From Pseudomonadota bacterium (lineage in GTDB: Archaea; Thermoplasmatota; SW-10-69-26; JACQPN01; JAJPHT01), in NCBI GenBank assembly GCA_021325135.1, contig JAJPHT010000036.1, positions 95,491-159,490 on the forward strand: a stretch of DNA of 64,000 bases, given 5' to 3'. The first letter of the stretch is position 1, and the number at the start of each line of letters is the position of its first letter. Position numbers and translations under genes: made by a program. Positions 845 to 60,157 of the stretch are shown piece by piece. The notes beneath the pieces are model-generated. The model had not been told where the DNA came from and searched no databases. It worked only from the letters and a program-made list of their open reading frames with translations.

Positions 845-1635
845 GCGCTCGCTTCCTCGCTTCCCCTGCGTCGCGCGGCTTCAAGGCTCTTCTGGAGGGC
901 GTCCGCCAGGTCCGCCGGCCGCCTGGCCTGCACCTTGGGGGGCAGCACGACCTCGCGCCCCTCGGCCTTGCCTTCGAGGTAGGCCAGCAGGCGCGCCCGG
1001 TGCTCGTCCGGGTAGCGGCCCGGGTCGAACGTGGTGGTCAGCGCGTCGATGAGCTGCCCCGCCATCTCGACCTCGCGCGGGCCGGGCGGCGCGGGCTCCG
1101 CAAGCTCCAGGTCCGCCTGGGGCACCACCTCGTCGGCGTGGAGCATCGTCTCCATGGCCAGCGCGTCGCCCACCGCGCGCACGGCGACCAGGTGCTCCTT
1201 GCCGCGCATGACGACGCGCGCGATGGCCACGCGGCCCGCCTTGCGCATGGCCTCCACGAGCAGGCGGTACGCCTTGCCGGCGCCCTTGTCGGGCACGAGC
1301 CAGTACGCCTTCTCGAAGTAGAGGGGATCGATCTCGGAGAGGTCCACGAAGTCCTGGATCTCGATGGCGTCGGTGGCCTCCGGATCGAGCGCCTCCAGCT
1401 CCTCGTCCGTGACCGTGACGAAGCCCTCGCCCACGGGCCACCCCTTGACGATGTGGTCGGGAGACACCTCCTCGCCCTCCGCGCTGCAGACCTTCCTGTA
1501 CTGGATGCGCGCGCCGTCGGCGTCGTGCAATTGGTGGAAGCGCACGTCGCGGGGGCGCTGCGCGCTGACGACGCGCACGGGCACGTTCACGAGGCCGAAG
1601 CCCAGGGAGCCCTTCCAGAGGGAGCGCGGCGGGAT
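841..1635 (-). CDS. ku: Ku DNA end-binding protein
   Basis: Track ORF 841..1590 has the Ku core (FHQLH, IDPLYFEKAYWL, KAYRLLVEAM, FDPGRYPDEHR, DLADALQKSL). The frame continues upstream as IPPRSLWKGSLGFGL, the conserved Ku N-terminus, so the start is placed at ATC 1635. Confidence 0.93.
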   Translation of the reverse strand: MPPRSLWKGSLGFGLVNVPVRVVSAQRPRDVRFHQLHDADGARIQYRKVCSAEGEEVSPDHIVKGWPVGEGFVTVTDEELEALDPEATDAIEIQDFVDLSEIDPLYFEKAYWLVPDKGAGKAYRLLVEAMRKAGRVAIARVVMRGKEHLVAVRAVGDALAMETMLHADEVVPQADLELAEPAPPGPREVEMAGQLIDALTTTFDPGRYPDEHRARLLAYLEGKAEGREVVLPPKVQARRPADLADALQKSLEAARRRGSEEASA

Positions 1636-1639
1636 GCTA

Positions 1640-3040
1640 TCACGCCTCCTCGCGCACGACGTCCTCGGGCGCCTTGTCGGCGCGGAGCCCCTTGTAGGAG
1701 GGGTGCCTGAGGCGGCCGGAGGCGGTCCACTCCGTGAACTCGAACTCGGCCACCAGGCGCGGCTCCACGAAGACGACCTCTTTCTTGTCCACGGACCCCG
1801 CGAAGGGGGATGCCTCGCGGCGCAGCGGCTCCAGCAGCCCCTTCAGGCGGGCCAATTCGCGCGCCGTGAATCCCGTGCCCACGCTGCCCGCGTACAGGAG
1901 GCGTTGAGGCTCGCCGCGTTCGCGCGCCTCGTCGGGGGGCGCGTCGTGCACGCCCACGAGGAGCGCGCCGATCTGCCCCCGCCGCGCGCCGCGGCCCGTG
2001 GTGTAGCCGCCGATCACAAGCTCCTGCCGGCGCTGGAGCTTGATCTTCCGCCACGCGCCGCTGCGCGCGCCGGGCTCGTAGACGGAGCCCAGCCGCTTGG
2101 CCACCGCGCCCTCGACGCCGGGAATTGCAAGCACCGCGCGCCCGTCGCCCACCACCGAGGGCGAGACGCGCCACGCCTCGCCGCTGAGGCCCAGGGAGAG
2201 CAGCGCGGCGCGCCGCTCCTCGTAGGGGCTGCCCGTGAGGTCGCGGCCGTCCAGGTAGAGAAGGTCGAACGCCACGAACGTCACGGGCGCTTCCCGGCTC
2301 TTCTGCTCGACGCCGGTTTTCGATCCGACGCCTAGGCGGGACTGGAGACGCTGGAAGCTTGGCCGCCCGCTCCCGTCGAACGCGACGATCTCCCCATCGA
2401 GGATCGCGCGACGCCCCCGCAGCGCCCCCGCGAGAGGCGCCAGCTCGGGGTACTGCGCCGTCACGTCCTGGAGCGTCCGCGAGAGCACGCGCACGCGCCC
2501 GTCGCGCACGTGCAGCAGCGCGCGGATGCCGTCCCACTTGATCTCGAACGCCCACCGCTCCGGGTCCGTGGGATAGGGCGCCGCGTGCGCGAGCATGGGC
2601 AGCACGCGCTCCGGCATCGGCCGCAGGCTGGGCGGATCGAGCCGCGTCAGGCGCCACTGCACGCCGCGCTCGTGCCGGAGCAGATAGCGGCCGAGCACGC
2701 GGCGGCCCTCCAGGCGAAGCTCGCGCGCGGCCGCATCGCCCCCGTGCCGCCGCAGGACATAGGGCCCCGCGTCCCACGCCGGATCGGGCGTCGCGCTGGG
2801 CTCCCGCGACGTGGCGGGCCGCGACTCCCCCTCCGCCCACGGGACGCCCGCGGGGAGCGCCCACGTGAGCGAGCCGGACGGGCCCTCCAGCACCAGCGAC
2901 CACTCGAAGGGGGCCGTCGCGCGGTGGCGCAGGGCGAAGCGGCCGGCGCCGCCCACCAGGCGCGAGAGGTCCTCGGGCGTGACCACGGGCGCGGCAGGCC
3001 ACGCCCCCCGCGCCTCGGCCGGTCGCGAGCCTTGCGTCAT
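1640..3040 (-). CDS. ligD: LigD-type ATP-dependent DNA ligase with a degenerate N-terminal phosphoesterase-like domain
   Basis: Motif I EIKWDGIR, plus ILDGEIV, AFDLLY, EGAVAKR, WRKIK, and an OB domain ending LRHPSYKGLRADK. ATG 3040 is preceded by GGAG. Confidence 0.9.
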   Translation of the reverse strand: MTQGSRPAEARGAWPAAPVVTPEDLSRLVGGAGRFALRHRATAPFEWSLVLEGPSGSLTWALPAGVPWAEGESRPATSREPSATPDPAWDAGPYVLRRHGGDAAARELRLEGRRVLGRYLLRHERGVQWRLTRLDPPSLRPMPERVLPMLAHAAPYPTDPERWAFEIKWDGIRALLHVRDGRVRVLSRTLQDVTAQYPELAPLAGALRGRRAILDGEIVAFDGSGRPSFQRLQSRLGVGSKTGVEQKSREAPVTFVAFDLLYLDGRDLTGSPYEERRAALLSLGLSGEAWRVSPSVVGDGRAVLAIPGVEGAVAKRLGSVYEPGARSGAWRKIKLQRRQELVIGGYTTGRGARRGQIGALLVGVHDAPPDEARERGEPQRLLYAGSVGTGFTARELARLKGLLEPLRREASPFAGSVDKKEVVFVEPRLVAEFEFTEWTASGRLRHPSYKGLRADKAPEDVVREEA

Positions 3041-3112
3041 GCGGGTCGCTCCGCCGCCTGGCGAAGCGGGCATGAGGGTTCCCGAACGATGGCCGGCGGG
3101 CGGCTCCCGGGC

Positions 3113-3212
3113 GGGCCCACGGGTGTGGTCACACCCGGGGAGGCTCGCCGCCCCACCCGTGGTCACGCCCGTGGCGAGCCGGCCCCACGGGTGGGACCAC
3201 ACCCGTGGCCCC
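3113..3212. repeat. Three palindromic units at 34-bp spacing that together form a long inverted repeat, between the divergent ligD and lysW genes
   Basis: Cores GTGGTCAC 3125-3132, GTGGTCAC 3159-3166 and GGGACCAC 3193-3200. The outer units CCACGGGTGTGGTCACACCCG and CCACGGGTGGGACCACACCCGTGG are near reverse complements. Confidence 0.8.
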
Positions 3213-3240
3213 CTTTCCGCGGCCACGCCCTCGGATTCAC

Positions 3241-7408: not shown

Positions 7409-8589
7409 ACACGGAGCAGATGAAGGCCATCGAGCAGCGGCGCGAGTCGGGCGTCTTCCCCAAGCGGCCCTTGAGCGTCGTGCGCGGCGAGGGCGCATGG
7501 CTCTGGGACGCCGAGGGGCGGCGCTACTTGGACTTCGGCGCCAACTACGGCGTGGGCAACGTCGGCCACTGCCACCCCCGGGTGGTCCGTGCGATCCAGG
7601 AGCAGGCGGCGCGCCTCATCGCGATCCCGCAGACGTACCACAACGACCAGCGCGCGCTCTTCCAGGAGGCGCTGCTGGCCACGGCGCCCCGCGGTCTGGA
7701 ACGCGTCTTCCTCGCCAACTCCGGCACCGAGGCCGTCGAGGCGGCGCTGAAGTTCGCCCGCGGCACGACGCGCCGCCCGGGCTTCGTCGCCACCAAGCGC
7801 GCCTTCCACGGGAGGACCTTCGGCGCGCTCTCGCTCACGCACAAGCCCGAGTACCGCGACCCGTTCCACCCCCTGCTATCAGACGTCGCGCACGTCGCGT
7901 TCGGCAGCGAGGAGGAGCTGAAAAGCGCGGTCACCTCGCAGACGGCCGCCGTCGTGATCGAGCCCATCCAGGGAGAAGGCGGCGTGCAGGTCCCGCCCTC
8001 GGGCTACCTGCGCGCCGCGCGCGACATCGCCCACGACGCGGGCGCCCTGCTCGTGCTCGACGAGATCCAGACCGGCTTCGCGCGCACGGGCTCCTTCTGG
8101 GCCTGCGAGCACGAGGGCGTGACGCCTGATATCCTCTGCTTCGCCAAGAGCGTCGCCGCGGGCCTGCCCATGGGCGGCGTCCTCCTCACGGACGAGGCGG
8201 CGAAGCTCCCCACCTCCGCGCACGGCAACACCTTCGGCGGCGGGCCGCTGGCGTGCGCCGCCGGGCTCGCCGTGCTGGACGTCATCCGCGAGGAGCGCCT
8301 CGCCGAGCGCGCCGCCAAGCTGGGCCCGCGCCTGCTGGACGGGCTCGCTCGGGCCGCAGGTGACGCCGCGCGGGAGGTGCGCGGCCGCGGCCTCATGGTG
8401 GGCCTGGAGCTCCGCACCCGCAACGTGCCCGTCCTCAACGGCCTCGTCGCCGAAGGCGTGCTCACGCTGCCCACCGGCGCCACCACCATCCGCTACCTCC
8501 CGCCCCTCGTCGTGGACGAGGCGCAGGTGGACGCGGCGGTGGAGGCGACGGCGAAGGCGGTGCGCGCGGCGGGGAACGCCTCAGCGTGA
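7405..8589 (+). CDS. lysJ: LysW-aminoadipate-semialdehyde aminotransferase (class III, ArgD family)
   Basis: ATG 7405 overlaps the lysZ stop. NSGTEAVEAA, FHGRT, EPIQGEGG, DEIQTGF, PLP lysine in FAKS, HGNTFGG. Confidence 0.93.
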   Translation: MNTEQMKAIEQRRESGVFPKRPLSVVRGEGAWLWDAEGRRYLDFGANYGVGNVGHCHPRVVRAIQEQAARLIAIPQTYHNDQRALFQEALLATAPRGLERVFLANSGTEAVEAALKFARGTTRRPGFVATKRAFHGRTFGALSLTHKPEYRDPFHPLLSDVAHVAFGSEEELKSAVTSQTAAVVIEPIQGEGGVQVPPSGYLRAARDIAHDAGALLVLDEIQTGFARTGSFWACEHEGVTPDILCFAKSVAAGLPMGGVLLTDEAAKLPTSAHGNTFGGGPLACAAGLAVLDVIREERLAERAAKLGPRLLDGLARAAGDAAREVRGRGLMVGLELRTRNVPVLNGLVAEGVLTLPTGATTIRYLPPLVVDEAQVDAAVEATAKAVRAAGNASA

Positions 8590-10803: not shown

Positions 10804-11882
10804 AAACGCACAAGAGGCGGAAGCGGCTCCCTCTCGTCGTGGACGACGCCGCCGTGCTGGAGGCCCTGGTGCGCGAAGGGAGCGTGACCGGCGACACCGA
10901 GCGCGCCGTCGCGGCCTTCGTGCGCTGCGCCCGCGCGCTGGGGCTGGAGGCCCACCGCGACGCCGCGGGCAACGCCGTGGCCATCGCGGGCCGCGGATCG
11001 CGCGAGGTCCTCCTGGTCGGGCACGTCGACACGGTGGCGCCCGTGCTGCCCGTCACGCTGGAGGATGGCTGGCTCTGGGGGCGCGGCGCGGTGGACGCCA
11101 AGGGCCCCCTCGCGGCGTTCCTCTGCGCGGCGGCGCGCCTCAAGGAGAGCCCCACGCACCGCTTCGTCGTCGTGGGCGCGTGCGACGAGGAGGGGCCTTC
11201 GGAGGGCGCGCGCTTCCTCGTGGACCGGCACCGCCCCGAGGCGCTGGTCATCGGCGAGCCCTCAGGGACCAGCGGCGTGACCCTGGGCTACAAGGGTATC
11301 GTCAAGATCCGCTACGAGCTGGAGGACGACCTCCAGCACACCGGCGCGCCGCACCCCAGCGTGCCCGACCGCGGGCTCGCCTTCTGGCACGCCGTCCAGA
11401 CGTTCCTCGCGCAGCAGCACGGGGAATCGATGTTCGAGATGCCCACGGTCAAGCTCAACGACTTCCAGACGGAGCTTCTCCCCTCGGGACGCGTCCGCGT
11501 GCGGCTCTCGGGCAGCGCGCGCACGCCGCCGGGCTTCGACACGCCCGCGTTCCTGGACTTCCTCCGCGAGCGCGCGGGCGCGGCCAAGCTGACCATTCCG
11601 GAGTGGGCGCCCGCGTGGCTGGGCGAGAAGAACGCGCGCCTCACGCGCGCCTTCGTGGCCGCCATCCGCGAGGAGGGGATGACGCCGCGCTACGTGCGCA
11701 AGACCGGCACCTCGGACGCCAACCTGCTGGCACCCCTCTGGAAGTGCCCCACCGTCGCGTACGGGCCCGGTGATAGCACGCTGGACCACACGCCGCAGGA
11801 GCGCATCGAGGTCGAGGACTTCCGGCGCGGCGTGCGCGTGCTGGAGCGCGCGCTGCGGACCCTCGCTTCGGGGCCCGCGTAA
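10800..11882 (+). CDS. lysK: LysW-lysine hydrolase (M20/ArgE family)
   Basis: GHVDTV, GRGAVDAKG, CDEEG, IGEPSG, KTGTSDAN, YGPGDSTLDHTPQE. Confidence 0.92.
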   Translation: MKTHKRRKRLPLVVDDAAVLEALVREGSVTGDTERAVAAFVRCARALGLEAHRDAAGNAVAIAGRGSREVLLVGHVDTVAPVLPVTLEDGWLWGRGAVDAKGPLAAFLCAAARLKESPTHRFVVVGACDEEGPSEGARFLVDRHRPEALVIGEPSGTSGVTLGYKGIVKIRYELEDDLQHTGAPHPSVPDRGLAFWHAVQTFLAQQHGESMFEMPTVKLNDFQTELLPSGRVRVRLSGSARTPPGFDTPAFLDFLRERAGAAKLTIPEWAPAWLGEKNARLTRAFVAAIREEGMTPRYVRKTGTSDANLLAPLWKCPTVAYGPGDSTLDHTPQERIEVEDFRRGVRVLERALRTLASGPA

Positions 11883-37800: not shown

Positions 37801-38554
37801 CCCCTCCCACGGTCTCCAGCGCCGCCACGACCGGCGCGTCCGCCGTCACGCGCAGGTCGTAGGCGAGGTCCGCAGAGGGGAGCGCGAGGCGCGCGGGCGC
37901 GGCGAGCCCGTCGGCCAACGTCTCGGGGGCCGCGCCGGGGGAGAGGCGCTCCACCTTCACGCGCGCGTCTCCCGCGGCGGGGAGGACGACGAGGCGGAGC
38001 GTGGCATCAGGCGGGATGGCCGGGACCCGGGCCAGGAAGCGGACGCCGGGGCCGGGGCCGAAGAGCGCATCGAGCCTCGCGGAGCCTTCGGGAGAGGGAC
38101 CCGGCACCGGCGCGTGCTCCAGGACGTCGAAGTAGACCTCGACGCGCCGCTCGCCGCTCCAGGCGCCCGGGACGAGCAGCGCCAGCGTGCCGCCTTCGCC
38201 TCCGTGGAGGTCGAAGGGGAGATAGCGCGACGGGAGGAGGGCGCCGGAGGCGTCGACGACGCGGAGGCTCGCGGGGTCCAGCGTCCAGCCTGCGGGCTCG
38301 CCCGCGCCGTCCAGGGGCCACGCGCGCGCGTCGCGCACCGCGGCGCGCAGGTCGAGGGGCGCCAGCAGCGCGACGTCCGAGGCGCCCGCCAGGTGGACCG
38401 CGCGCCCGTCCACGGGATCGGCCGCGTCGGCGGCCAGGTCCAGCGGCAGGCGGAAGTGCCACGCGGGGTCCCACCAGGGCGCGCGGGCGGCCTCGGCAGG
38501 GGGCGCCGCGAGTGGTGATAGCAAAATGGCGAGGAGGAGGGCGCGCGCCTTCAT
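34850..38554 (-). CDS. 1234-aa secreted surface protein with NEW3/CARDB-like repeats and a PGF-CTERM-like tail
   Basis: ATG 38554 overlaps the upstream stop. Signal MKARALLL.., WWDPAWHFRLPL, repeated LxNxG strands, tail TPAAAPWAALLLALALRRR. Confidence 0.85.
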   Translation of the reverse strand: MKARALLLAILLSPLAAPPAEAARAPWWDPAWHFRLPLDLAADAADPVDGRAVHLAGASDVALLAPLDLRAAVRDARAWPLDGAGEPAGWTLDPASLRVVDASGALLPSRYLPFDLHGGEGGTLALLVPGAWSGERRVEVYFDVLEHAPVPGPSPEGSARLDALFGPGPGVRFLARVPAIPPDATLRLVVLPAAGDARVKVERLSPGAAPETLADGLAAPARLALPSADLAYDLRVTADAPVVAALETVGGDAQPAALAAPALEGGFAGRRFLLPALGGDTTWDVVGASRANATVRACDDGRALASFSAPRLGSASLLVPSGGCARLEADGPVVALARGAQAGGVDRFLQQAVSLDGGPSGSLLVAQRAGGHALLSNLPVGAQAFPLARPNEALSGRAGDPPRETWATRASPSAASEPWALLAPGADATALLGSDGLAVLAGKSGLSFSAPLATDRAPDAPATLEAALELPFAGTRVETDARALNGTPLSRATGTISLAGALATTPDGKAPLAREDTLLQVDVSKPAFLFAWRPGAPFDAFLPGLPPEARATASPVEEHGALLSWSDPAKEAAAKPGDHARLSLSLQNLGAAEDGSPLTEDVALSLEPAPDARCLAAWDARLAASTLPGLVAPGSARVDALVDVPVDARDGDCLSLRLVAQSSQDNATRAEARLVLRARSGFEPVLRALDASGQEAQRVDLALAPGVPSRVSLLLRNAGAQAGDADLSLAAGPGYNATLNATRVHVEPNGTAPLELTLTAPTGSEPPWEFVVEATSVSDPSARDQAVVAAAPRANATVEAHASDRIVRPVPGGSANATILLRNLGGDAEVRVRSVGALPDGWRVALDPPSVLLRAAGARNESGATLDEASVRAEVLAPRGAPVGLSVPLALVVEPTVGAGAAARVGLVAVAANDLALRVEGPDALLGAPASNGTARVTVRSEALAPLDLAVEPLVAPRGWRATLDGLPASLAPGEEARATLHWSVEPGAPPQEGNVTLAILASDATTPAALRSLSIPARTPAAPALVLVAPAEARATPGQPLRLRVVLRNDGNAPADAPATLSPEGIARFADAPEAGLLAPGATRLLDIIVNASADATLTVRAGEASRDVAVVGLRRDLAILDARVEGAPGAQVVNVTLENRGDGDATALLLRVRAGNVTLAQRALPGLAAGGRATHVLLVGDAPAGATVDLLGSDGAADAQATLQGAAPLRATPAAAPWAALLLALALRRRSS

Positions 38555-41500
38555 CGCCGCCACCTCCGGGCGAGGGCCAGCGCAGCCACGGCCAGGAGCG
38601 CAAGGGGCAGGCCGGCGTCGGGGGCCGCGCGCCGGACGACGCCCACGGCCAGGGGCGACGCGGGGCCCGCCAGCGTGAACGAGCCCAGCCGCGCGTTGTC
38701 TTCGGGCCGCGCGTCGACGAAGCCCTCGCGGGGGGCCAGCACCACGGCGTAGGAGTGCGGGCCTGGCGCGCTGGCGTTCCACGCGAGGTCGGACTCCACG
38801 AGGGCGCCCGGGTCGAGGACGCCCAGGTCGCGCTGCGCGACGCCCGCGCCGTCCACGTACAGCTCCGCCACGGCGGGCGCGGGCACGTCGCCGCGGTTCT
38901 GCGCCGCGATGCTCCAGCGCGCGCCCTCCCGCGTCACGTTGTCCAGCCCCACGTCCGCCACCAGCAGGGTGACGTTGCGCGCGAGGCTCGCGTCCGTCGT
39001 GCCCTCCGCGCGCGCCACGAGCGGGAGCGTCTGCGCCCCGGCGGGCGCCAGCAGGGAGTAGCCCAACGCCGCGGTCGCGCCGGGGGCCACGCGGTAGCTG
39101 CGCGCGGCGGGCGCGGCCGACGAGCCCGGGGGCAGGTCCCACGAGAGGACGCCCTCCTCGGGGACGTTGCCGGCGTTGCGCACGAGGAGTGTTACCTGCG
39201 ACTCGGCCCCCGCCGTGAGGTTCCCCTGGAGGTCAAGGCGGAGGTCGTGGCGCGGCGCGAGGCGGACGGCGCCCTGCGCGCGGCCGGCGAGGTCCTCGCT
39301 GGTCCACGTGACGGAGACGGGGATCGCCCGCGGCGCGTCGTCGCCACCAAGATCCAGGGGCACCTGCGCCACGCGGCGCTCGCCGGGCTGCGAGAGGAGC
39401 GTCGCGGCGCGCAGGCTCCACGAGGCGGGGAAGCCCTCGGTGCGCAGGTGGACCGTCTCCGGCGCGTTGCCGCGGTTGTCCAGGAGGACGGGGAGCGTCG
39501 AGCCGTCGCTGGGGAGGAGCGACACGTCCAGGGCGGGCCGCCGCGGCACGTCGATGCTTCCCTGCGCCGCGTGGACCTTGCCTTCGGCGTCCACCGCGGA
39601 GAGCCCCACCGGCACGCTCCCCGCCAGCGCGGAGTCGGGCGGCAGCGCGCGCACTCTCAGGACGACCCACCCGCCGGCCGGCAGGTCGACGCTGCCTGCG
39701 GCGGTGCCGTTGGCCTCGGTGGAGAGGGCCCATCCGTCGGGAGCCTCGGGCTGGAGGGCGTAGGTCTCGGGGGCGTTGCCCAGGTTCGTGAGGCGGAAGA
39801 GGGCGGAGCGCGCGTCGTCGGGGGGGAGCGGCTGCACGTGGGCCGCCTCCTCGCGCACCAGCGTCGAGAGCGTCGCGGCGTTGTCGTCCAGCGTGGCGCC
39901 GGGCTCGGGCGCGCCGCCCCGCGCGTATGCCGACGCGGTGAGCCGCACGATGCCGGGCACCTGGGGCGTCCAGGAGGCGTTGCGCGTCCAGCTGGCGCCC
40001 GGCGCGAGGTCGCCCACGGGGAGGGAGGTCTCGCCCTCCAGCAGGCTCTCGACGCCCGCGGCCAGGGCGACCTCGACGCCGCGCGCGGCGGCCGCGCCGC
40101 GGTTCTCGACGCGGAGATGATAGCCCACGGGAGCGCCCACCGCTGGCGCGGCGTCGTCCAGCGCTAGGCCGACGCGCAGGTCGGGGAAGGGGAGCGGCGC
40201 CACCGCCGAGGAGAGGCTCGCGGCGTCGTTCGCGCGGTCGGCCTCGGGGACGGCGCCCGCGGGGTCGAGGCGCGCCTCCAGGCGGTAGGTCCCGGCGTGG
40301 CGCGGCGTCCAGGAGATCTCCAGCGCGCGCGTGGCGCCCGCCGCGAGGATGATATCGCCCTTGGGCGACAGGTCGTCGGGCGCCTCGACGACGCCGTCGG
40401 GGGGCCGCGCGAGAAACGAGAGGGGCGCCGCGGCGTCCGCGAGCCCCAGGTTGGCCACGTCCAATTCGACGGTGCGCGGCTGGCCCGCGGGCTCGTCGTC
40501 GCCGCGCACGCGCAGCCCCGTCACGGCGAGGTCGGGCCGCGGCAGGCCCGCCGCGTGGAGCGACCACGTCGCGCTGCGCGTGAGGTTGGGCAGCAGCGTC
40601 GAGCGCAGCGTGAGGGGCAGCGGGACCGGGCCGCGCAAGGGGCCCGCGCCCAGGCTCGGCGCGGTGGTCAGCACGAGGTCCAGGGCGCGCGCGTCGTGGG
40701 CCGGGACCGCCAGCGGGCCCGCCAGGGGTTTCCCCGTGAGGGCGTCCACGAAGGTGGCGTTCCAGCCCGCAGGCAGCGCGGCGGGGCGGCCCGCGGCGTC
40801 GGCCAGCGAGAGGAGGTACGCGTCGCCCAGCTCGCCCTCGTTGCGCACCTCGAAGCGGAGGCGCTTCTGCGCGGCGTCGGGGAGCGCCGCGTCCGGGAGC
40901 GGGCCGAAGGAGGCGTTCAACGGCGTCACCGACGCGTCGTCGATGACGAGGTACGAGGCGCCTCCCGCGGGCGGCCGCGGCGCGTCGACGCGGAGGCGGA
41001 CGGCCTGCACGTCGGGGGCCAGGAGGGGGGAGAGATCGCGCTCCACGGGGGCGAAGCGCCCCTGCGACGCGCCTGGGCTGCGGCCCGCAAGCTGCGCGGC
41101 CGGGGTCCACGCTCCCTGCGTGCCGTTGGCGAAGAGGGGCGCCACCCAGACCGTCGCGGCCGCTCCCGCGGGCAGGTCGTGGAGCACCGCGAGGCGCAGC
41201 CACGCGCCCGCGAAGCCCGCCACGGGGAAGGGCGGCGACTGGAGGCTCGCCACGGTGGCGGAGTCCGTCGCGTCCGCGGGTGGAAGGCCCACGGCGAGGC
41301 CCACCGGCGGGCTCGCGTGGCGCGTCGGGTCCTCCATGGCGCAGGGCGCGCGGGTGAGGCAGTCCCAGCCCGGCGCGGTCGCCGCCTGGTCGGCCGTCGC
41401 GCCGAAGGGCTCCGCGTAGGCGAGCCTGCCCAGGAAGCGCCCCACGTGGAACGTCGCGTTGGCGTCAAGGACGAGCGCGCCCCGGGGCGTCGTGGTCGCG

Positions 41501-44500
41501 ACGTGCGCCACCGCGACGTAGTCGCCCGCGGGGAAGGACGCCGGAGGGCGCCACCTCCACGTCACGTCCAGCGTCTCACCAGGCCCCAGGCGCGCGGCGA
41601 GGGGGCGCGCGTTGGGGAGGAGACGCACGCTCTCGTTGTCGTGGAAGATCTCCAGCGTCGAGGCGCCCAGGGAGGCGGGGTCCTCGCCGTCGTTGGCCAC
41701 GAGGGCGTGGAAGACGATCTCGCCGCCCGAGGCGGGGTCGAGCACCTGGGGCGTGGCGTCGAGGCGCAGCGGGACGACGCGCGAGCGCTCGCGGACGTTG
41801 GCGCCGCCCACCAGGGCGTCCACGCGGTTGTCGGCCAGGAGCGTCTCGCCCGGCGCGGCGGCGAGGTCCGCCTCGACGCGGCTTGCCGACGCGTTCGCGA
41901 CGAGGATCCAGTTGATGTCGACGCCGCGGACGGGGACCTGCGCGGACTCGCCCGGCGCGAGGGGAGGGACCTGGCGCGTCGTCTCGTGGGGCGGGCGCGG
42001 GCCCCACTCGGGGGGATCGAAGACGCGCACGTGGAGCGCGCCGCCGGGCCACGCGGCCTGGCCGCGGTTCACGACCTCGAAGAGGAGCGTGCGATATCCC
42101 TGGGTGAGGGGCGCGTCGGTGGGCGCCAGCAGGCGCAGCCCCGCGCCCTCGCCGTGGCGCAGCACGCGCAGCGTCGCGCCCAGGATCTGCCAGCTTCCTT
42201 CGGTGCCCGTCGCGTCGGCGGAGCCGCGGAAGCGCAGGCGCACCTCGTCGCCGCGGAAGACGTCCGCCTCCAGGCGCGCGCCTCGCGCCTCCCAGAAGTC
42301 GCCGCGCGCCGCGGGCGCCGTCGAGAGCGCGGCGCGCAGCGCGACGAGGACGGGCCGGCCGGCAAACGGCGTGAGGTCGTAGGTGGCGTTGCCGATCTCC
42401 GGCGCCGCGCGCCACGTCCGCCCGTCGTCGTCCGAGGCCTCGACGCCGACCTGGGACGAGCCGTGGAGGGAGCGCGTCTCGTCGAGCCGCAGCGTCGCGT
42501 TGGCGACCGCGGTGGTGAGGTCGACGGGGAAGACGAGGCGCGCGTCCGCGAAGCCGCCCGCTGCGGAATCGAGGCGCCAGCCGCCCGCGGGAAGCGCGCG
42601 CCATGCAGGCGGCGCCATGTCCGCCAGGAGACGGAAGCCGTCGGACGCGGGCGCGAGGGGGAGGCGGGCGTTCGGGTCGTCCTCCGCGCGCAGCCACGTC
42701 GACGCCGCCTCCGCGGTGGCGTTCCCCAGGGGCAGCGGCGCGCCCTCCGCCGTCTCGACGCGGGGCGAGGCGAGGGCGACCCCGCCGAAAGGCGCCGCTG
42801 CATCGTCCGCGAAGCCCGTCGAGCGCGGCGCGAGGGCGCGCACCTCCACGACGAGGCGCGCGCTGCGGCCCGCCAGCGCGGCGCCCGCGCCGGGGAACGT
42901 CGCGGCGAGGTCCGTCCAGCCTTCGGTGGACGAGACGGCGGGGCCCTCGAAGCGCGTCGAGCCATCCGGCGTCTCCAGCGCGAGGCGCGCGAGGCTCGGG
43001 GGCGCGTGCGGATCGCCCGAGACGCCCAGGCTCGCCCAGACGCGGACGCGCGCCTCCAGGTCGCCCCGCGCGCCCGCCGGCACGTCGACGGGGAACGCCA
43101 GCGCGTCGACGCGCAGGAACGCCGTCGCGTCGGCGGGCGCTCCCGCGGGCGCGTCGTGGGGGCCGACGTACCACGCGGTGGCGTTGCCCTCCCGCTGCGG
43201 GCCCGCCCAGCGGTTCTCAGGGTCCGAAGGGACGGGAAGCTGGAGGCGCTCGCGCAGCGCGGGCGCGGCGGAGAGGTCGAAGCGGTCTACGCGCTCGCCG
43301 CCGCTCACGCCCGTGAACGCGGGCGCGCTGGCGTTGGCGTCGAGCGCGCTGGGCGCCAGCAGCGCGCCGGGCTCGCCGCCCGCGGGCGGAACGGGCACCC
43401 ACGGGCCCGAGGGGGAGAGCGCCTCAAGGCGGCCGCCGTCGAAGCCCTCCTCCAGCGCGTAGCGGTGGCGCACCTCCAGCGTGGCGGAGACCGCGCCGCG
43501 CAGGTCGAGCGGCGGAAGCGCCAGCGAGGAGTCGACGCCGGGGCGCGGCTCGAAGCGCCAGACGCCGGTGGCGTTGCTCCACGGGTCCTGGCCCTGCGCC
43601 GCGGCGAGATCGAGGGGGATCGCCTCCTCCACGCGGAGGGGCTGCTCGGCGCCCACGACGGGCGCGGCCCCCGGGAGCGCCAGCGAGGCGACGACGCGGT
43701 ACGCGCCGCTGGAGGAGGGCGTCCACGCGGCGGGAGCGGAGATCGTGGCGCGCTCCCCGGGGGCGACCGGGCGGCCCAGCGCCGCGGCGGCGTCCAGCGA
43801 GACCGGCGCGGCCAGCGCGCTGCGCCCCGACGCGTCGAGCACCTGGAACGATATCGTCGCGGGGCGCGCGGCGTCCAGGGGAAGCGTCCCCTGGTTGATG
43901 ATATCAACCTGGAGACCCAGGGGCGCGCCGGGGCGCGGGTCGCCCTCCACCAGGCCCCCCGCGGGGACCGCCAGCGCGGCGTCCAGCTCGTCGCGCACGT
44001 CCACGGCGCGGGAGAGGAGATCGTCCAAGGGGCTCTCGTCGGGGGGGTCGGTCGCGACGGAGACCCGGAGGACGTGCGGGCCGTAGGAAGCGGGCACCCA
44101 GGCTTGCGGCAGCGCGAGCAGGCGCGAGGCCCCCGGGGCAGGCAGCGCGCCGGGATCGTCCACGCGCAGCGTCTCGGGGCCGTACTCGATCCCGCCCGAC
44201 GCGTTGACGACGCTCACCGTGACGTCCGCCCGGCGCGGCGCGAAGAGGCCGGCATCCGCGAGGCTCACCGACAGGGGGACCGGAGCGCCCAGGCCCACCG
44301 CGGGCGCGACCCCGGGCAGCTCGACCTTGACGTCGTGGGCAGGACCGGGCGCGCCGACGCGCAGGCCGCGGACGGACCACCCTTCGCCCTGGAGCGGCGC
44401 GGAGGCCAAGGCGTGGAGTTCCAGCGCCACGCGGCGCGTGGCCAGCGCGGAGGCCAGCGGCGCGAGGCCGACGCGCACCGGGACCCACGACGCGTTGCCC

Positions 44501-47500
44501 ACCCACGCGGTGGCAGTGGCGCCCGCGGGCACGCGCGCGCCCAGCGCCCGGGCCAGCGGCTGGAAGGCGGGCGCGTCCACGTCCCCGCGGTACGCGCTCC
44601 CCTCCGCGCCCGCGTCGGGCGCGAGCAGGACGCGCTCCTCGGGCTCCGTCGCGTTGGCCTCCAGCACGGCGACCAGCGCGCCGCCCGCGAGGTTGCGCCC
44701 CGCCTGGTCCGCGCCGAAGTCGTAGCGCGTCTCGAAGCGGACCTCCGGCGCGGGGACCCCCGCCAGCGAGACGAACGGCGTGCGGGCCACGCTCCAGACG
44801 GGCTCGCTCGTGGCGGCCCCCGGCGACTCGCGCCACGCCAGCGCGCCCCCCTCCAGGCTCCAGCGGTGGGGCGGCACGTCGGGGAGCGCGACGACGCCCC
44901 ACCCGCGGCCGTGCGCGCTGGGAAGGTCCTGCGCCGCGAGGCCCCAGTCGCCGCTCCACGCCGCGCCGCCCTCCTCGAAGCCCTCCGCGCGCCCCACGAC
45001 GCGCCAGGGCTGCGTTCCGTCCGCGCGCTCCAGGAGGCGCACCTCGTCCACGAGCCAGGTGGGCGCGTCGGGGCTTTGCGCGGTGAGGTTGCCGCCTGCG
45101 ACCTCCAGCGTGAGGCGAAGGCGCTGCGCGCCCGCGTCGGGGTGGACCGGGATCGCCACGCCCTCCCACCCGGCGGTGGCGCGCTCGAACGTCGCCGCGT
45201 CGGGGGCCGCGCCCGCCTCGTCGGGAAGCTCGATCCCCCCGAGAAGCTGCACGTGGCCGCGCACGCCCGCCGCGCCGTCCCACGAGAAGGCGCCGCGGCT
45301 CTCGAAGACGATCTCGTGCTCGCCGGGCCCGGCCGCGGCGTAGAGGTCGGAGAGGTCGCGCTCCACGACGTAGCGCGCCAAGGCCTGCGTGCCGTTGGCG
45401 GCGGCGGGCGCGGGCAGCGCGGCGAGCAGGTCCGCCGCCGAGTAGGGTCCGAAGACGCAGCAGCGCGCGCCGCCCTCGTAGGGCCACGCGCGGCCCGCGG
45501 GCAGGAGCGTGGCCGACCCGTTGGGCGCCGCCAGGACGAGGGGCGCGTAGGCGAGCTGAGCGCCCGGATCGAGGGTGATATCAGCGGCCACGTAGAGGAG
45601 CGTGCCGTCGGCGCCGCCCTCTTCGAGGGTGCCGTTCCCCACCAGGATCGTCGTGCCGTTGGCGGAGAGCGTGAGGTTCTCGTCGGACACGCTCTCGTTG
45701 GCCAGCCGGCTGAGGTTGACGACGCCGACGCGGCTGCCCGGGTCGTCGCACGCGGGCGGGCACGCCAGGAGAAGCGCGCGGGCGTAGCTGACGTTCACGG
45801 GGACGGACGCGCTCTGGTTGGCGGGGAGCGCCACGGGCGCGGCGCCCGGGAGCGCGAGGCGCAGGGGGACGACGCCGCGGACGGAGGAGCCGTTGGCGAG
45901 CCCGTCGCGCGCCCACGCGGCCAGCGCGTGCGTGCCGCGCGGCGCCATCGGGTCCAGCGGAACGGGAGTGCCGTTGTCGAGCCCCCACGCGTCGAAGCCC
46001 CACCCCGGGAGGCGGTCCGCGGCGCCCTCGCTCCAGGGGCGCGCGGGGTCGGCGGGCGGCGCGAGGTCGGGCTGGAGGGCCGGCGGGGGCGAGGCGTCGA
46101 CGTAGGTGGAGAGCGCCGCGCTGGCGGCCCCCTCCGCGCGCGCCTCGACGCGCCATTCGCCGCGCGACGGGGGCGTCCAGCGCAGGTCCAGCGTCGCGGC
46201 GGAGCCGGGCGCGGGCGCCTCGAAGGAGGCGCTCGTCACCTGCTGCGGGGCCGAGCCCAGCTGCCACGCCCAGAGGCCCACGCTGGCGGGCCCGCCCCGG
46301 GTGCCCTCGTTGAGGACGCGCGCGTGGATCGTCTTCGCCGCGCCCAGCGCCGTCACCGCGGAGGCCTCGTCCTGCGCCGCGGAGAGGCCCAGCCGCATCG
46401 CGCTCTCCACGCGCACGCGGACGCACGTCGAGTCATCCGAGGAATCCAGGTCGACGCGCGTGCGGTCCAGGGCCAGGCGCGCGCAGAGCGTCGCGCTCCC
46501 CTTGACGTCGACGTCCTTCGGGAACTGCGCCTGGGCCACCGCGCCCGGAGCGACGGGGCCCACGGGCACGCTCGCCGCCGCGACGGGACGCCCGTCAGGG
46601 CCGTCCGCCTCCAGCGTGACGACCACCGGCCCCGTGGCGGCGGGGCCCCAGTTGCGCACGAGGGCCGCGGGCGCGCCCAGCGAGGCGACCATCCGCCCGT
46701 CCGCGAGCCCCGCGAAGCCTTCGACCGCGACGTCGGGCTCATCCAGCGTGGCGTTCACCTGCACGTCGTCGAGCCCCCACCCCGCGGCGTCGGGCGGGAG
46801 CAGGGCGGAGCTTCGCGCGCGGAACCCCACCTCGATCACGCTCCCGGCGAAGGGGCCCAGGTCGTACTCGGTGCGCAGCGCGCGGGGGGAGGCGCCCACG
46901 AAGCCGGGCTCGCCCGTGGCGAGGCGCCCGTCGTGCATGGCGTAGCCGGGCGCCTCCAGCACGCCGCCCGCCTGCACGAGGGCGTCGTCGGGCACGACGG
47001 GCGTCAGCTCGCGCCAGGGGGACCACACGCCCCCCGCGCCGAGCGCGCGCGCCTCCACGAAGGCGCCGTCGCCGGGCGCGAAGTCCCACTCGTGGAGGAG
47101 GCGCAGCCGGACGTGCGCCGCGCTGGCGACGGAGGGCGCGGCGAGGGAGACGCTGCCGTTGGGCGGCCACGCCAGGGGCTCCACGAGAGAGGGCTGCGCG
47201 GGCGCGGCGGCGCCGGGAGGCAGGGGCGCGCCCGCCACGTGGCGCAGGTCCAGCTCCGGGGCGACGAGGCGCGCGTCGAGGCCCGCGACGTACTGCGTGC
47301 GCGCGGCGCCGCGCTCCACCGCGAAGCCCACGCCGTCGCCCGCCATGAGGTCCACGCGCCAGCCGCGCGACGCGAAGCCCGCCCCGCCGTCGAACGTCTC
47401 GTGGAGGATCGTCGCGTCCACGGGCGGCTCGGGCGCGGCGACGGGCTCGGTGGCGCCGATGGAGGGGAGCGGCAGCAGGAGCAGGAGCGCGAGGAGCGCG

Positions 47501-47511
47501 CGGGCCTTCAT
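38551..47511 (-). CDS. 2986-aa secreted surface glycoprotein with jelly-roll and CARDB repeats and a PGF-CTERM-like tail
   Basis: ATG 47511 overlaps the upstream stop. Repeated HxY..DGG..DLxxFAG..GWxxDDV and PDL..VxNxG..DExDxxND units; tail APDAGLPLALLAVAALALARRWRR. Confidence 0.87.
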   Translation of the reverse strand: MKARALLALLLLLPLPSIGATEPVAAPEPPVDATILHETFDGGAGFASRGWRVDLMAGDGVGFAVERGAARTQYVAGLDARLVAPELDLRHVAGAPLPPGAAAPAQPSLVEPLAWPPNGSVSLAAPSVASAAHVRLRLLHEWDFAPGDGAFVEARALGAGGVWSPWRELTPVVPDDALVQAGGVLEAPGYAMHDGRLATGEPGFVGASPRALRTEYDLGPFAGSVIEVGFRARSSALLPPDAAGWGLDDVQVNATLDEPDVAVEGFAGLADGRMVASLGAPAALVRNWGPAATGPVVVTLEADGPDGRPVAAASVPVGPVAPGAVAQAQFPKDVDVKGSATLCARLALDRTRVDLDSSDDSTCVRVRVESAMRLGLSAAQDEASAVTALGAAKTIHARVLNEGTRGGPASVGLWAWQLGSAPQQVTSASFEAPAPGSAATLDLRWTPPSRGEWRVEARAEGAASAALSTYVDASPPPALQPDLAPPADPARPWSEGAADRLPGWGFDAWGLDNGTPVPLDPMAPRGTHALAAWARDGLANGSSVRGVVPLRLALPGAAPVALPANQSASVPVNVSYARALLLACPPACDDPGSRVGVVNLSRLANESVSDENLTLSANGTTILVGNGTLEEGGADGTLLYVAADITLDPGAQLAYAPLVLAAPNGSATLLPAGRAWPYEGGARCCVFGPYSAADLLAALPAPAAANGTQALARYVVERDLSDLYAAAGPGEHEIVFESRGAFSWDGAAGVRGHVQLLGGIELPDEAGAAPDAATFERATAGWEGVAIPVHPDAGAQRLRLTLEVAGGNLTAQSPDAPTWLVDEVRLLERADGTQPWRVVGRAEGFEEGGAAWSGDWGLAAQDLPSAHGRGWGVVALPDVPPHRWSLEGGALAWRESPGAATSEPVWSVARTPFVSLAGVPAPEVRFETRYDFGADQAGRNLAGGALVAVLEANATEPEERVLLAPDAGAEGSAYRGDVDAPAFQPLARALGARVPAGATATAWVGNASWVPVRVGLAPLASALATRRVALELHALASAPLQGEGWSVRGLRVGAPGPAHDVKVELPGVAPAVGLGAPVPLSVSLADAGLFAPRRADVTVSVVNASGGIEYGPETLRVDDPGALPAPGASRLLALPQAWVPASYGPHVLRVSVATDPPDESPLDDLLSRAVDVRDELDAALAVPAGGLVEGDPRPGAPLGLQVDIINQGTLPLDAARPATISFQVLDASGRSALAAPVSLDAAAALGRPVAPGERATISAPAAWTPSSSGAYRVVASLALPGAAPVVGAEQPLRVEEAIPLDLAAAQGQDPWSNATGVWRFEPRPGVDSSLALPPLDLRGAVSATLEVRHRYALEEGFDGGRLEALSPSGPWVPVPPAGGEPGALLAPSALDANASAPAFTGVSGGERVDRFDLSAAPALRERLQLPVPSDPENRWAGPQREGNATAWYVGPHDAPAGAPADATAFLRVDALAFPVDVPAGARGDLEARVRVWASLGVSGDPHAPPSLARLALETPDGSTRFEGPAVSSTEGWTDLAATFPGAGAALAGRSARLVVEVRALAPRSTGFADDAAAPFGGVALASPRVETAEGAPLPLGNATAEAASTWLRAEDDPNARLPLAPASDGFRLLADMAPPAWRALPAGGWRLDSAAGGFADARLVFPVDLTTAVANATLRLDETRSLHGSSQVGVEASDDDGRTWRAAPEIGNATYDLTPFAGRPVLVALRAALSTAPAARGDFWEARGARLEADVFRGDEVRLRFRGSADATGTEGSWQILGATLRVLRHGEGAGLRLLAPTDAPLTQGYRTLLFEVVNRGQAAWPGGALHVRVFDPPEWGPRPPHETTRQVPPLAPGESAQVPVRGVDINWILVANASASRVEADLAAAPGETLLADNRVDALVGGANVRERSRVVPLRLDATPQVLDPASGGEIVFHALVANDGEDPASLGASTLEIFHDNESVRLLPNARPLAARLGPGETLDVTWRWRPPASFPAGDYVAVAHVATTTPRGALVLDANATFHVGRFLGRLAYAEPFGATADQAATAPGWDCLTRAPCAMEDPTRHASPPVGLAVGLPPADATDSATVASLQSPPFPVAGFAGAWLRLAVLHDLPAGAAATVWVAPLFANGTQGAWTPAAQLAGRSPGASQGRFAPVERDLSPLLAPDVQAVRLRVDAPRPPAGGASYLVIDDASVTPLNASFGPLPDAALPDAAQKRLRFEVRNEGELGDAYLLSLADAAGRPAALPAGWNATFVDALTGKPLAGPLAVPAHDARALDLVLTTAPSLGAGPLRGPVPLPLTLRSTLLPNLTRSATWSLHAAGLPRPDLAVTGLRVRGDDEPAGQPRTVELDVANLGLADAAAPLSFLARPPDGVVEAPDDLSPKGDIILAAGATRALEISWTPRHAGTYRLEARLDPAGAVPEADRANDAASLSSAVAPLPFPDLRVGLALDDAAPAVGAPVGYHLRVENRGAAAARGVEVALAAGVESLLEGETSLPVGDLAPGASWTRNASWTPQVPGIVRLTASAYARGGAPEPGATLDDNAATLSTLVREEAAHVQPLPPDDARSALFRLTNLGNAPETYALQPEAPDGWALSTEANGTAAGSVDLPAGGWVVLRVRALPPDSALAGSVPVGLSAVDAEGKVHAAQGSIDVPRRPALDVSLLPSDGSTLPVLLDNRGNAPETVHLRTEGFPASWSLRAATLLSQPGERRVAQVPLDLGGDDAPRAIPVSVTWTSEDLAGRAQGAVRLAPRHDLRLDLQGNLTAGAESQVTLLVRNAGNVPEEGVLSWDLPPGSSAAPAARSYRVAPGATAALGYSLLAPAGAQTLPLVARAEGTTDASLARNVTLLVADVGLDNVTREGARWSIAAQNRGDVPAPAVAELYVDGAGVAQRDLGVLDPGALVESDLAWNASAPGPHSYAVVLAPREGFVDARPEDNARLGSFTLAGPASPLAVGVVRRAAPDAGLPLALLAVAALALARRWRR

Positions 47512-58312: not shown

Positions 58313-58652
58313 GAATAACACCCTGCGGCCACATGGGTGGAGTTGCGGAGCTTCATGGGCTCCGGGCGAATGCGGATGGCCGCAGGGGGTTGCGCTTACA
58401 ATCCCCGCGGGGGCGATAACGCCTCCCTGCCGAGTTCGCGCGGGCCTCGGAGCCCTCTGGAGCCTCCTTCGGGGAGGCTCATGCCCGTCCGCGCGCCATC
58501 AAGGGGCATGGAGACGAAGACCTCGACACGGAGACGTCCTGGCCTTGCGTGGGTCCCTCCCTACGAGCGGTGGATCCGGCCCCTGGGCGAGCGCGCGGAC
58601 GTGTGAGCCCTTCGCCGAAAGCGCCAAGCGTCCCGCGCGCGCAAGGCGCCCC

Positions 58653-59408
58653 ATGACCGGCCTCATGGCGCGCGGGGGCGTCGTGCGCCGCCTCGTCCTC
58701 GACCAGGCCTCCCGCGTCGAGGCCTCGGCCGAGGCGCTGGCGGACGACCCGCGCCGCGCGGGCACTCTCCACGCGCACCGCCGCGAGTGCCGGCGCCTCG
58801 CCGCCTGCGTCGACCTGGCCGAGTGGGCGCTCAAGCCCACGCAGGTCGCCCGCGCCCGCGAGGCCGTGACGCCCCTGCCCCGCGGCCTCGGGCGCCACCG
58901 CGACGCGGACGTCCTGCGCGAGCGCCTGGAAGGGACCCCCGAGGTGGCGACCCTCGTGCTGCGCGACGCGGACCGCGGCCGGCGCAAGGCCGCGCTGCGC
59001 GCGTGCGCCCGCGCGCGGCCCTCCGCGCTGCGCCGGCCGCTGCGCCGCGTCGTGGACGCCATCCCGCCCGACGCCTGGGGCGACGCGCTGGCGCTCCCCG
59101 CCGCGCGCGTGCGCGTCCGCGCCGAGCACGCGCTGCGCGACGGGGGTGAGACGGCCTGGCACGCGCTGCGCCTCGACGCGAAGCGGCTGCGCGACGGCGC
59201 GATGGCCCTCGGCGCCGCCGACGCCGAGGCGATCCCCCACGCGGAAGGGGCCGACGCCATCGCGCAGCCGCTGGGGCGCTGGCGCGACGCGACCCTCCTG
59301 GCCGGCGCGCTGGCGCGGGCGGGGCTCTCCTCCGAGGCGGCCCGGCGCGAGGCGCGCGAGGGGCTGGAGGCCGCGCGCGGCGCGGCCGCGGCGTGGCTCG
59401 CGGGCTAG
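58653..59408 (+). CDS. CHAD-domain (polyphosphate-binding) protein
   Basis: Two repeats: HAHRRECRRL..LGRHRDADV and HALRLDAKRLR..LGRWRD. Confidence 0.85.
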   Translation: MTGLMARGGVVRRLVLDQASRVEASAEALADDPRRAGTLHAHRRECRRLAACVDLAEWALKPTQVARAREAVTPLPRGLGRHRDADVLRERLEGTPEVATLVLRDADRGRRKAALRACARARPSALRRPLRRVVDAIPPDAWGDALALPAARVRVRAEHALRDGGETAWHALRLDAKRLRDGAMALGAADAEAIPHAEGADAIAQPLGRWRDATLLAGALARAGLSSEAARREAREGLEAARGAAAAWLAG

Positions 59409-60157
59409 CCTTCCTCGTCCACCAGCGTCGTCATGGGCTGCAGGCGCTCGTGGACGCGGTCCAGCGGGATCTGAAGGACGGGGGCGACGGCCTTCCTGAT
59501 CTCCACCTGCGTCTCGTCCACGGCGCGGCGCGCGTCGACGGTCTTCCAGCCCGCCTCCTTGGCCATCTCGTCGTACTCGCGGATCTGCTTGGATTGATAG
59601 CTCATGAAGGAGTCGTGGATGTCCTCGCCCATGTGCCGGTCCATGCCGCTCTCCCAGTAGTTGAGCCGGGTGCGGTCCAGCGTGCGCGTGATGAGGTCGT
59701 CCACGTCGAGGCGCATGTAGACGGTGAGGTCGGGCGGCGGCGCGAAGCCGTAGAGCTCGCGCATCCAGTCGCGGTCGACGTCGCGCACGGCGCCGCGCAC
59801 CATGGCGGTGGCGACGTAGCGGTCCGCGACGACGACCATGCCGCTCTTGAGGGCGGGGATGACCACGCGCTCCAGCCTGTCGGCGAAGTCCGTCGCGTAG
59901 AGGAGCGTGTAGGTGACCTTGTTGAGGAGCGTGCCCTCCTTGGCGCTGGTGATGAGCTTGGAGACGAGGAGCGAGCGGTTCCAGCCGGTGACGACCACCG
60001 GGAGGCCGTGCGTCTCGATCCAGGGGACGAGGCGCGCGATCTGCGTGGAGCGGCCGACGCCGTCGGTGCCCTCCAGGACGATGAGCTTGCCCTTGACCTC
60101 CTCGCGCTCGACGCGGGGGAGGCCTCGCTTGCGGCTCGTGGCTCGGGTCGGGGTCAC
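59405..60157 (-). CDS. Thymidylate-kinase-like protein 2 (PPK3-like subunit, variant P-loop)
   Basis: GTG 60157 overlaps the upstream stop. LEGTDGVGRST, ATDFADRLE, ADRY, YWESGMD. Confidence 0.85.
   Translation of the reverse strand: MTPTRATSRKRGLPRVEREEVKGKLIVLEGTDGVGRSTQIARLVPWIETHGLPVVVTGWNRSLLVSKLITSAKEGTLLNKVTYTLLYATDFADRLERVVIPALKSGMVVVADRYVATAMVRGAVRDVDRDWMRELYGFAPPPDLTVYMRLDVDDLITRTLDRTRLNYWESGMDRHMGEDIHDSFMSYQSKQIREYDEMAKEAGWKTVDARRAVDETQVEIRKAVAPVLQIPLDRVHERLQPMTTLVDEEG

Follow-up and report, generated by a model that had tools for sequence, protein, structure and literature searches.

Since the 1990s cyanobacteria have been known to carry highly iterated palindromes, for which no cause has yet been established. 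The uptake signal sequences (USS) of the Pasteurellaceae and the DNA uptake sequences (DUS) of the Neisseriaceae are dialect words, evenly distributed over the genes in whichever reading frames cost least, and with a certain amino-acid cost. For the cyanobacterial words, namely HIP1 (highly iterated palindrome 1; GCGATCGC) and the alternate palindromes of other cyanobacteria, one-off forms at the outer positions and a model based on repair have been described (Elhai 2015, PMC4390886). Here we consider a stretch of archaeal DNA, hereafter the window, which comprises 64,000 nucleotides of contig JAJPHT010000036.1 (positions 95,491 to 159,490, forward strand) of assembly GCA_021325135.1, deposited as a Pseudomonadota bacterium and placed by GTDB among the Thermoplasmatota. 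Its coding sequence is strewn with the AT-rich palindrome TGATATCA, which, together with its G[AC]TATCA relatives, is a genus-specific, highly iterated, HIP1-like genomic word that acts at the level of DNA. A directional force on DNA fills compatible places with this word across the whole chromosome, against strong GC and codon bias. The original prediction, made from the letters of the window alone, had proposed a DNA-level signal under selection and analogous to HIP1; the DNA level and the analogy hold, the latter being apt in over-representation, multi-frame dispersal and lineage specificity alike, and conservation of the sites in relatives, named there as a check, shows no excess.

Within the window, TGATATCA occurs six times where 0.04 copies are expected, a count reached by none of 100 dinucleotide-preserving shuffles, and the one-off forms TGATAGCA and TGCTATCA together occur seven times against 0.15 expected from the same null. 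When up to one mismatch is allowed, there are 22 matches against 1.77 expected. All 13 full 8-mers that had been counted by eye lie where they were placed, far above chance; the longer list of seven-of-eight matches was confirmed in part, nine matches appearing in our one-mismatch list (6640, 8127, 18247, 32950, 34339, 40350, 49663 and 53443, plus 3917). The pattern extends to the whole of the assembly that contains the window (G000; 3.77 Mb, 51 contigs, 71.6% GC), in which 210 copies of TGATATCA and 151 of TGATAGCA/TGCTATCA are found on 47 of the 51 contigs, at a mean density of 0.096 per kb, and in which TGATATCA is the most over-represented 8-mer, at 166 times the expectation of an order-2 Markov model. 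Only two single-base variants of the palindrome are frequent there: one changes position 1 from T to C (CGATATCA, 157 copies), in agreement with the outer-position bias of HIP1-type variants, and the other, equally common, changes an inner position, 3 from A to C, equivalent to 6 from T to G (151 copies). Control words of the same composition and other AT-rich words containing stop codons show no enrichment in G000.

The excess persists for all three forms under a null that preserves the encoded proteins. Genes were called by us from the periodicity of GC content at third codon positions (GC3), giving 2468 non-overlapping, GC3-supported open reading frames (ORFs) that make up 74% of G000, and codons were shuffled among synonyms within each gene. 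TGATATCA was observed 135 times against 3.15 expected (43-fold, or about 43- to 45-fold), TGCTATCA 87 times against 5.4 (16-fold), TGATAGCA 22 times against 1.0 (22-fold) and GATATC 372 times against 103. The asymmetric form is enriched in both orientations (16-fold and about 20- to 22-fold), and it shows no strand skew across the genome (76 vs 75). Density is 0.090 per kb in coding-like DNA and 0.115 per kb in non-coding-like DNA.

The reading frames tell the same story of a signal in DNA. Taking occupancy as the number of word-filled places over the number of peptide-compatible places in the called ORFs of G000, we obtain the following values, with codon boundaries marked by hyphens:

nnT-GAT-ATC-A (xDI[A..]): 124 of 442 places, 28%, with 1.1 expected
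nTG-ATA-TCA: 11 of 240 places, 4.6%
TGC-TAT-CAn (CY[HQ]): 23 of 26 places, 88%, with 1.9 expected
nTG-CTA-TCA ([nTG]LS): 58 of 1041 places, 5.6%, with 0.09 expected
nnT-GAT-AGC-A: 19 of 486 places, 3.9%
nnT-GCT-ATC-A: 6 of 844 places, 0.7%
nTG-ATA-GCA: 3 of 673 places, 0.45%

Enrichment within peptide-compatible places ranges from 12- to 660-fold across frames whose peptides are unrelated (D-I, L-S, I-S, C-Y-H/Q and D-S), and the perfect form lies in nnT-GAT-ATC-A at 100 of 133 confidently framed sites. The aspartate codon GAT accounts for 38% of usage in D-I-A contexts and for 5.8% elsewhere. The two claims that the motif is a DNA-level signal and that it sits in different frames, forcing rare codons, are therefore well founded: copies turn up in more than one frame, in either orientation and outside coding DNA, at the expense of codon usage and even of some amino acids.

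We suggest that the word is made of half-sites. Across the whole genome G[AC] precedes 87% of the 1271 TATCA pentamers; the 7-mers GATATCA, TGATATC and GCTATCA exceed the synonymous null 3.5- to 8-fold and the 8-mer exceeds it 45-fold, and the GATATC core outside these 7- and 8-mers is only about 1.4-fold enriched. Given this context of TATCA and this gradient from 7-mer to 8-mer, G[AC]TATCA is the better notation for the unit, and its overlapping double, TGATATCA, is the most favoured form. The motif as first written, TGATA(T/G)CA, denotes real sites, which the half-sites describe better. Half-sites in the 7-mer form have a density of about 0.23 per kb (one per 4.4 kb); the double variant TGCTAGCA has no copies in G000, and the flank logo of the sites shows codon periodicity only and no longer motif. 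The base before GAT-ATC-A is T in 124 of 156 cases, T making up only 3.7% of third positions genome-wide, and the states of the xDI[A..] places at the two variable third positions (C..C 238, T..C 11, C..T 32, T..T 124) show strong cooperativity, the intermediates being near baseline and the full word about 100-fold up. This cooperative half-site pattern points to a dimeric, sequence-specific binding protein.

The force on DNA sometimes overrides protein sequence. Codons starting with A follow Asp-Ile in 31% of cases, as against 15-18% after E-I, D-V, D-L, G-I or A-I, a doubling which implies that proteins have been altered; among the residues after Asp-Ile, Ile, Met and Thr are raised 2.0- to 2.4-fold and Ala and Gly lowered to 0.6-fold. 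The 26 CY[HQ] tripeptides, 23 of them written as TGCTATCA, are about twice as numerous as their permutations (11-16). In orthologues, multiple changes fall within 8 bp, as where CTG GAC TCG corresponds to CTT GAT AGC, with a switch between serine codon families. Where an orthologue lacks the motif, it usually has CGACGTCG or GGACGTCG (x-D-V-x), from which the word requires a change of Val to Ile and, for instance, of Ala to Thr.

Among relatives, all of them represented by draft genomes that are 72-100% complete, the enrichment is confined to one genus, whose archaea are uncultured and very rich in GC. Judged by the nearest protein clusters, the host of the window is probably one of the Thermoplasmatota. 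The word is enriched in all five congeneric species, with 210 (G000), 111, 378, 141 and 53 perfect sites, and the variant form has 151, 72, 329 and 63 copies in the genomes with 210, 111, 378 and 53 perfect copies, respectively. Sixteen other genomes of the class have 0-9 perfect sites each, and the two of them tested for the variant have 4-5. The GC content of sampled loci is alike inside and outside the genus (65-74%), and DNA identity among the species of the genus is 70-86%.

The sites show turnover between species. When G000 was set against a 386-kb sample of G002, the closest species, 12 of 37 G000 sites were also the word in G002, and 11 of 76 G002 sites were also the word in G000. Counted in the same way for both, occupancy of xDI places is 57% in G002 and 35% in G000, and that of [nTG]LS places 28% and 12%; the sharing observed is about what independent filling of compatible places, at 57% in G002, would predict. 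Third-position T is conserved in 58% of cases inside the word and in 55% elsewhere, the latter being a crude control. The original prediction was to stand or fall by an excess over a coding-aware null and by conservation of the sites in close relatives; on the second count we find no excess beyond parallel filling, which speaks for a bulk, genome-wide process and not for conserved functional sites. It is the tendency that is conserved, with no sign of individual sites being kept in place.

Neither spacing nor position suggests a local role. Sites in G000 are spaced in a Poisson-like manner, with a coefficient of variation of 0.97 as against 1.06 in simulations, and thus without regularity, and about 9% of them provide a TGA or TAG stop codon. 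Half-sites have no preferred upstream distance and no peak at 1017 well-defined gene starts, at which a TATA-like signal (CTTAAG/CTTATA) is found from -36 to -26; the lack of a positional peak in these 1017 upstream regions leads us to reject a promoter or TATA role and does not fit operators concentrated at promoters. Density is unchanged around the two orc1/cdc6 genes of G000, so that no association with these genes is seen.

Two regions of G000 depart from this even spread. Bases 1-164249 of contig C46 (66-68% GC) have no TGATATCA or variant site where about 16 would be expected from the genome mean, and the remaining 52 kb of the same contig (73% GC) has six; the 164-kb segment has probably been acquired recently or forms a replicon of its own. 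It encodes methyltransferase genes of its own. The other region is the single dense array of the genome, five copies in 100 bp (TGATATCA, CGATAGCA, AGCTATCA, TGATAGCA and TGCTATCA) at C33:188575-188665 (locus L031, 3076-3170), which lies between a 152-aa gene and an operon for a METTL5-like methylase, Csl4, RpoL and TruD, upstream of the latter. The spacer holds several GATAGC/GCTATC copies in G001-G004, the four genus members sampled, and none in the outgroup G007; the adjacent 152-aa protein belongs to no Pfam family, and its nearest ESM Atlas clusters are archaeal hypothetical proteins. Elsewhere, at C40:73733-73755 (locus L032, 3234-3256), a short spacer with a stop codon on one side and the 3' end of a tRNA-Asn gene on the other holds two copies of CTGATATCAG, separated by 15 bp.

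In the window itself (60-81% GC), the full sites are the following:

29085..29092, perfect TGATATCA: GGT-GAT-ATC-ACG (G-D-I-T) in the minus-strand DUF4350 gene
30758..30765, perfect TGATATCA within ATTGATATCAAT: ATT-GAT-ATC-AAT (I-D-I-N) in the giant gene 29238-35291 (minus)
35287..35294, perfect TGATATCA: CTT-GAT-ATC-ATC (L-D-I-I) in the giant gene 34850-39232 (minus)
43899..43906, perfect TGATATCA: GTT-GAT-ATC-ATC (V-D-I-I) in the giant gene 38551-48396 (minus)
45576..45583, perfect TGATATCA: GCT-GAT-ATC-ACC (A-D-I-T) in the giant gene 38551-48396 (minus)
50309..50316, perfect TGATATCA: TAT-GAT-ATC-ACA (Y-D-I-T) in the giant gene 47508-55532 (minus)
1635..1642, plus strand, variant TGCTATCA: the TCA doubles as the TGA stop codon that ends the minus-strand ORF 1640-3259
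7874..7881, plus strand, variant TGCTATCA: CTG-CTA-TCA (L-L-S) in a plus-strand gene; absent from relatives
11771..11778, plus strand, variant TGATAGCA: GGT-GAT-AGC-ACG (G-D-S-T) in an M20 peptidase gene; common to G002 and G003
31656..31663, minus strand, variant: GTG-CTA-TCA (V-L-S) in the giant gene 29238-35291
36863..36870, minus strand, variant: CTG-CTA-TCA (L-L-S) in the giant gene 34850-39232
37427..37434, minus strand, variant: CTG-CTA-TCA (L-L-S) in the giant gene 34850-39232
38516..38523, minus strand, variant: TTG-CTA-TCA (L-L-S) in the giant gene 34850-39232

The codon contexts quoted for these sites beforehand (LLSD, LLSW, LLSN, LLSP, VLSG and IDIN) and the 12-bp palindrome ATTGATATCAAT were read correctly. 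At the place orthologous to site 1635, G001 and G004 have TGATATCA and G002 has TGATCTCA. At site 11771, G001 has GGC GAC AGC TCG and the outgroup G007 GGC GAC GCG TCG, so that the motif state includes a change of Ser to Thr.

The giant genes belong to a very large operon of about 79% GC (window 25646-55532), whose products include Ig-like/CARDB/TSP3/DUF4129 surface proteins of about 1460-3280 aa:

25646-26644, minus strand: MoxR AAA ATPase gene, upstream of the giant genes
27161-28381, minus strand: DUF58 gene, upstream of the giant genes
28378-29241, minus strand: DUF4350 gene, upstream of the giant genes
29238..55532, minus strand: four consecutive giant genes, with open frames of about 2018, 1461, 3282 and 2675 aa and GC of up to about 79%

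With 5 of 7 xDI[A..] places and 4 of 15 [LVM]LS places filled, the giant genes are more densely occupied than the genome on average, which explains the local density seen in the window. The rate of about one site per kb that had been given for these genes is generous, though density is indeed raised in them: they hold 10 full sites in about 26 kb, or 0.38 per kb, four times the genome mean, and 15 sites with one mismatch. Across G000, occupancy is raised in long genes (56% above 1200 aa as against about 30%), and it is somewhat lower in the genes of highest GC3.

Other words are over-represented in G000 as well. Glu-Leu is written with the two rare codons GAA-TTG 190 times, 7.8-fold above the synonymous shuffle (11-fold for GGAATTG), and GAG-CTT stands 2.6-fold above that null, with GAG-CTC less used; this bias is in-frame and strand-specific and thus seems to be distinct from the palindrome, an effect of codon pairs or of site avoidance. 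The 8-mers ACTACTAC and TCTACAAC, 25- to 50-fold above the Markov model, occur in a single frame, as xYY and [VLFI]YN, and stem from the repetition of a protein motif rather than from a word in DNA.

As to what drives the word, we tentatively favour, at somewhat less than even confidence, a dimeric sequence-specific DNA-binding protein that reads the half-sites, with the sites acting in bulk. We posit that the word would be two overlapping TGATA/TATCA half-sites bound by a dimeric and highly sequence-specific protein, which would have arisen, or changed its specificity, in the ancestor of the genus and would prefer TGATATCA over TGACATCA or CGACGTCG. The number of sites on the host chromosome would count, not their location, as a bulk or "self" property such as chromosome organisation or the marking of own DNA; each site would bring only a small advantage or conversion bias, and so small an effect would allow turnover between species and would leave recently acquired DNA without sites. 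The lone array on contig C33 agrees with a binding protein, being operator-like and what one would expect of the operator of such a protein. Several points weigh on the other side. No binding protein was identified, so that no gene is tied to the word. That unconstrained non-coding DNA has a near-equal density, that copy number ranges from 53 to 378 between species and that positional conservation shows no excess can all be explained by a non-adaptive drive no less well than by selection for binding sites. The variant is used unevenly across frames (nnT-GCT-ATC-A 0.7%, nnT-GAT-AGC-A 3.9%, nTG-CTA-TCA 5.6%), which a strand-symmetric reader of DNA does not obviously explain; our own GC3-based gene calls carry some error into these frame counts, and the conservation control may be contaminated by misframed ORFs.

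A non-adaptive drive of this kind would be provided by the repair ratchet of Elhai's HIP1 model, guided by methylation or akin to very-short-patch repair, in which the word accumulates without a function of its own: a methyltransferase would mark the word or its core, and a repair nuclease would resolve nearby mismatches in favour of the marked sequence. We consider it rather improbable as the cause here. It would account for a HIP1-like pattern in which a palindromic 8-mer surrounds the 6-bp core GATATC and outer one-off forms such as CGATATCA are frequent, and Poisson spacing, turnover, variable copy number and comparable coding and non-coding density all suit a neutral drive. G000 also has several DNA methyltransferases, including a family-wide SPPY enzyme (N4-cytosine type). 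The core, however, is hardly enriched once the 7- and 8-mers are set aside, it is disrupted in the common variant GCTATCA, and the passage from CGACGTCG to the AT-rich word takes up to four changes, for which repair of single mismatches is not obviously sufficient. Nor do the candidate enzymes follow the word. The D12 methylase family PF02086 (Dam/EcoRV class) was not found in G000; the PF01555 enzyme occurs in motif-poor sister genera too, with the SPPY motif intact inside and outside the genus, and so does the genus-shared PF00145 enzyme, with its motifs intact; the only genus-looking match to PF02384 (N6_Mtase) is a UPF0020/Trm14-like RNA methylase; and NucS and a weak MutS-like gene (MutS_V) are the same inside and outside the genus, across the family.

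Drive might also come from recombination, were the word a self-recognition signal for DNA exchange or protection, like DUS/USS or Chi, that spreads within the genus; this we regard as unlikely. The word behaves as a genus dialect, evenly spread through genes in the least costly frames and at some amino-acid cost, it is absent from the 164-kb low-GC segment, its density is Chi-like (8-mers about one per 10 kb, 7-mers one per 4.4 kb), and the multi-change patches towards it could be imported alleles. Against this, both Chi and the uptake sequences that are known lack symmetry, the latter being also about ten times denser; the asymmetric form of our word has no strand skew, and we know of no uptake signal in any archaeon. 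ComEC (PF03772) and DprA (PF02481) were not found in G000, G002, G004, G006 and G007 by searches that matched bacterial controls, which is weak evidence, as archaeal uptake systems are poorly known. Of the functions offered in the original prediction, a site for a chromatin or segregation protein, an uptake sequence and a modification mark alike gained no support; no genus-specific DNA methyltransferase was found among the candidates searched. A translational or coding effect, be it a codon-pair preference, hidden off-frame stops or a protein motif repeated in the giant genes, is very improbable. TGA lies on both strands of the word, TGATAG is a double stop, one frame dominates the perfect form and the giant genes are enriched. 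Yet three frames with unrelated peptides are all enriched, no frame of TGC-TAT-CA or nTG-CTA-TCA contains a stop on the sense strand, non-coding-like DNA is equally rich, the control words and other stop-containing words are not enriched, and the peptides at the sites vary across the genome and are not limited to repeats; both the hidden-stop and the codon-pair explanations are thereby contradicted by the data on frames and on non-coding DNA.

The window also contains a low-GC island (18844-22489, minus strand, 60-64% GC) that encodes a PIN_12 protein, a weak match to an NgoMIV-like restriction enzyme and a C5 cytosine DNA methyltransferase, and that is probably a strain-specific type II restriction-modification cassette. 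It was rejected as the cause of the word, as it is not conserved in the genus and only G003 weakly matches part of it.

To return to the dimeric reader, it is possible, though we would not count on it, that the sites belong to an undescribed archaeal system which marks the host chromosome through dimer-read sites, for the distinction of self from foreign DNA or for chromosome organisation. If so, the enriched species and the motif-free sister genera would allow the first identification of a factor behind a HIP-type word. The contrast is a strong one, with 53-378 copies in each of five congeneric species and next to none in 16 relatives of similar GC, and, together with the difference in filling between species (35% vs 57% of D-I places), it makes the cause testable. 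Evidently, a word at the level of DNA can remodel both the codons and the amino-acid sequences that an archaeon uses, a point of relevance to models of codon usage, to gene calling where GC is very high and to the recognition of foreign DNA. The original prediction knew of no description in this lineage, and full-text searches likewise returned no paper on TGATATCA as an iterated genomic word and none reporting highly iterated palindromes in Archaea. New here are the contrast between genus and class, the description in half-sites, the counts of cooperative states, the turnover, the motif-free segment and the negative tests of candidate genes.

Among known systems, the sites of chromosome-binding proteins such as Noc (NBS), SlmA (SBS), MatP (matS) and ParB (parS) resemble the word in being short, dimer-read palindromes present in tens to hundreds of copies, many of them intragenic, if our word is indeed read by a dimer. 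Those sites are longer (12-16 bp), fewer and positioned with respect to ori or ter; for TGATATCA, within a 51-contig draft, no change in density was seen near the two orc1 genes. With the DUS of the Neisseriaceae and the USS of the Pasteurellaceae, the word has in common its genus dialect, its even spread, a tolerated protein cost and its scarcity in foreign DNA, and it could likewise accumulate by drive and not by a function of each site; it differs from these asymmetric 9-12-mers, which occur about once per kb, in being palindromic, shorter and present at 0.096 per kb, and in lacking a detected ComEC or DprA. HIP1 is different in that the present host is archaeal, that an AT-rich word here stands in a genome of 72% GC, at about a tenth of the density (one per 10-18 kb as against about one per kb), that variation is not limited to the outer positions, the commonest one-off form affecting an inner one (A3 to C), and that no cognate methyltransferase was tied to TGATATCA among the candidates searched. 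In the remaining respects the likeness is close: both are 8-bp palindromes far beyond what codon usage predicts, scattered over coding and non-coding DNA and over several frames, spreading by substitution, specific to a lineage, and lost or replaced between relatives. This is the HIP1 phenomenon in a new domain of life, with an AT-rich word.

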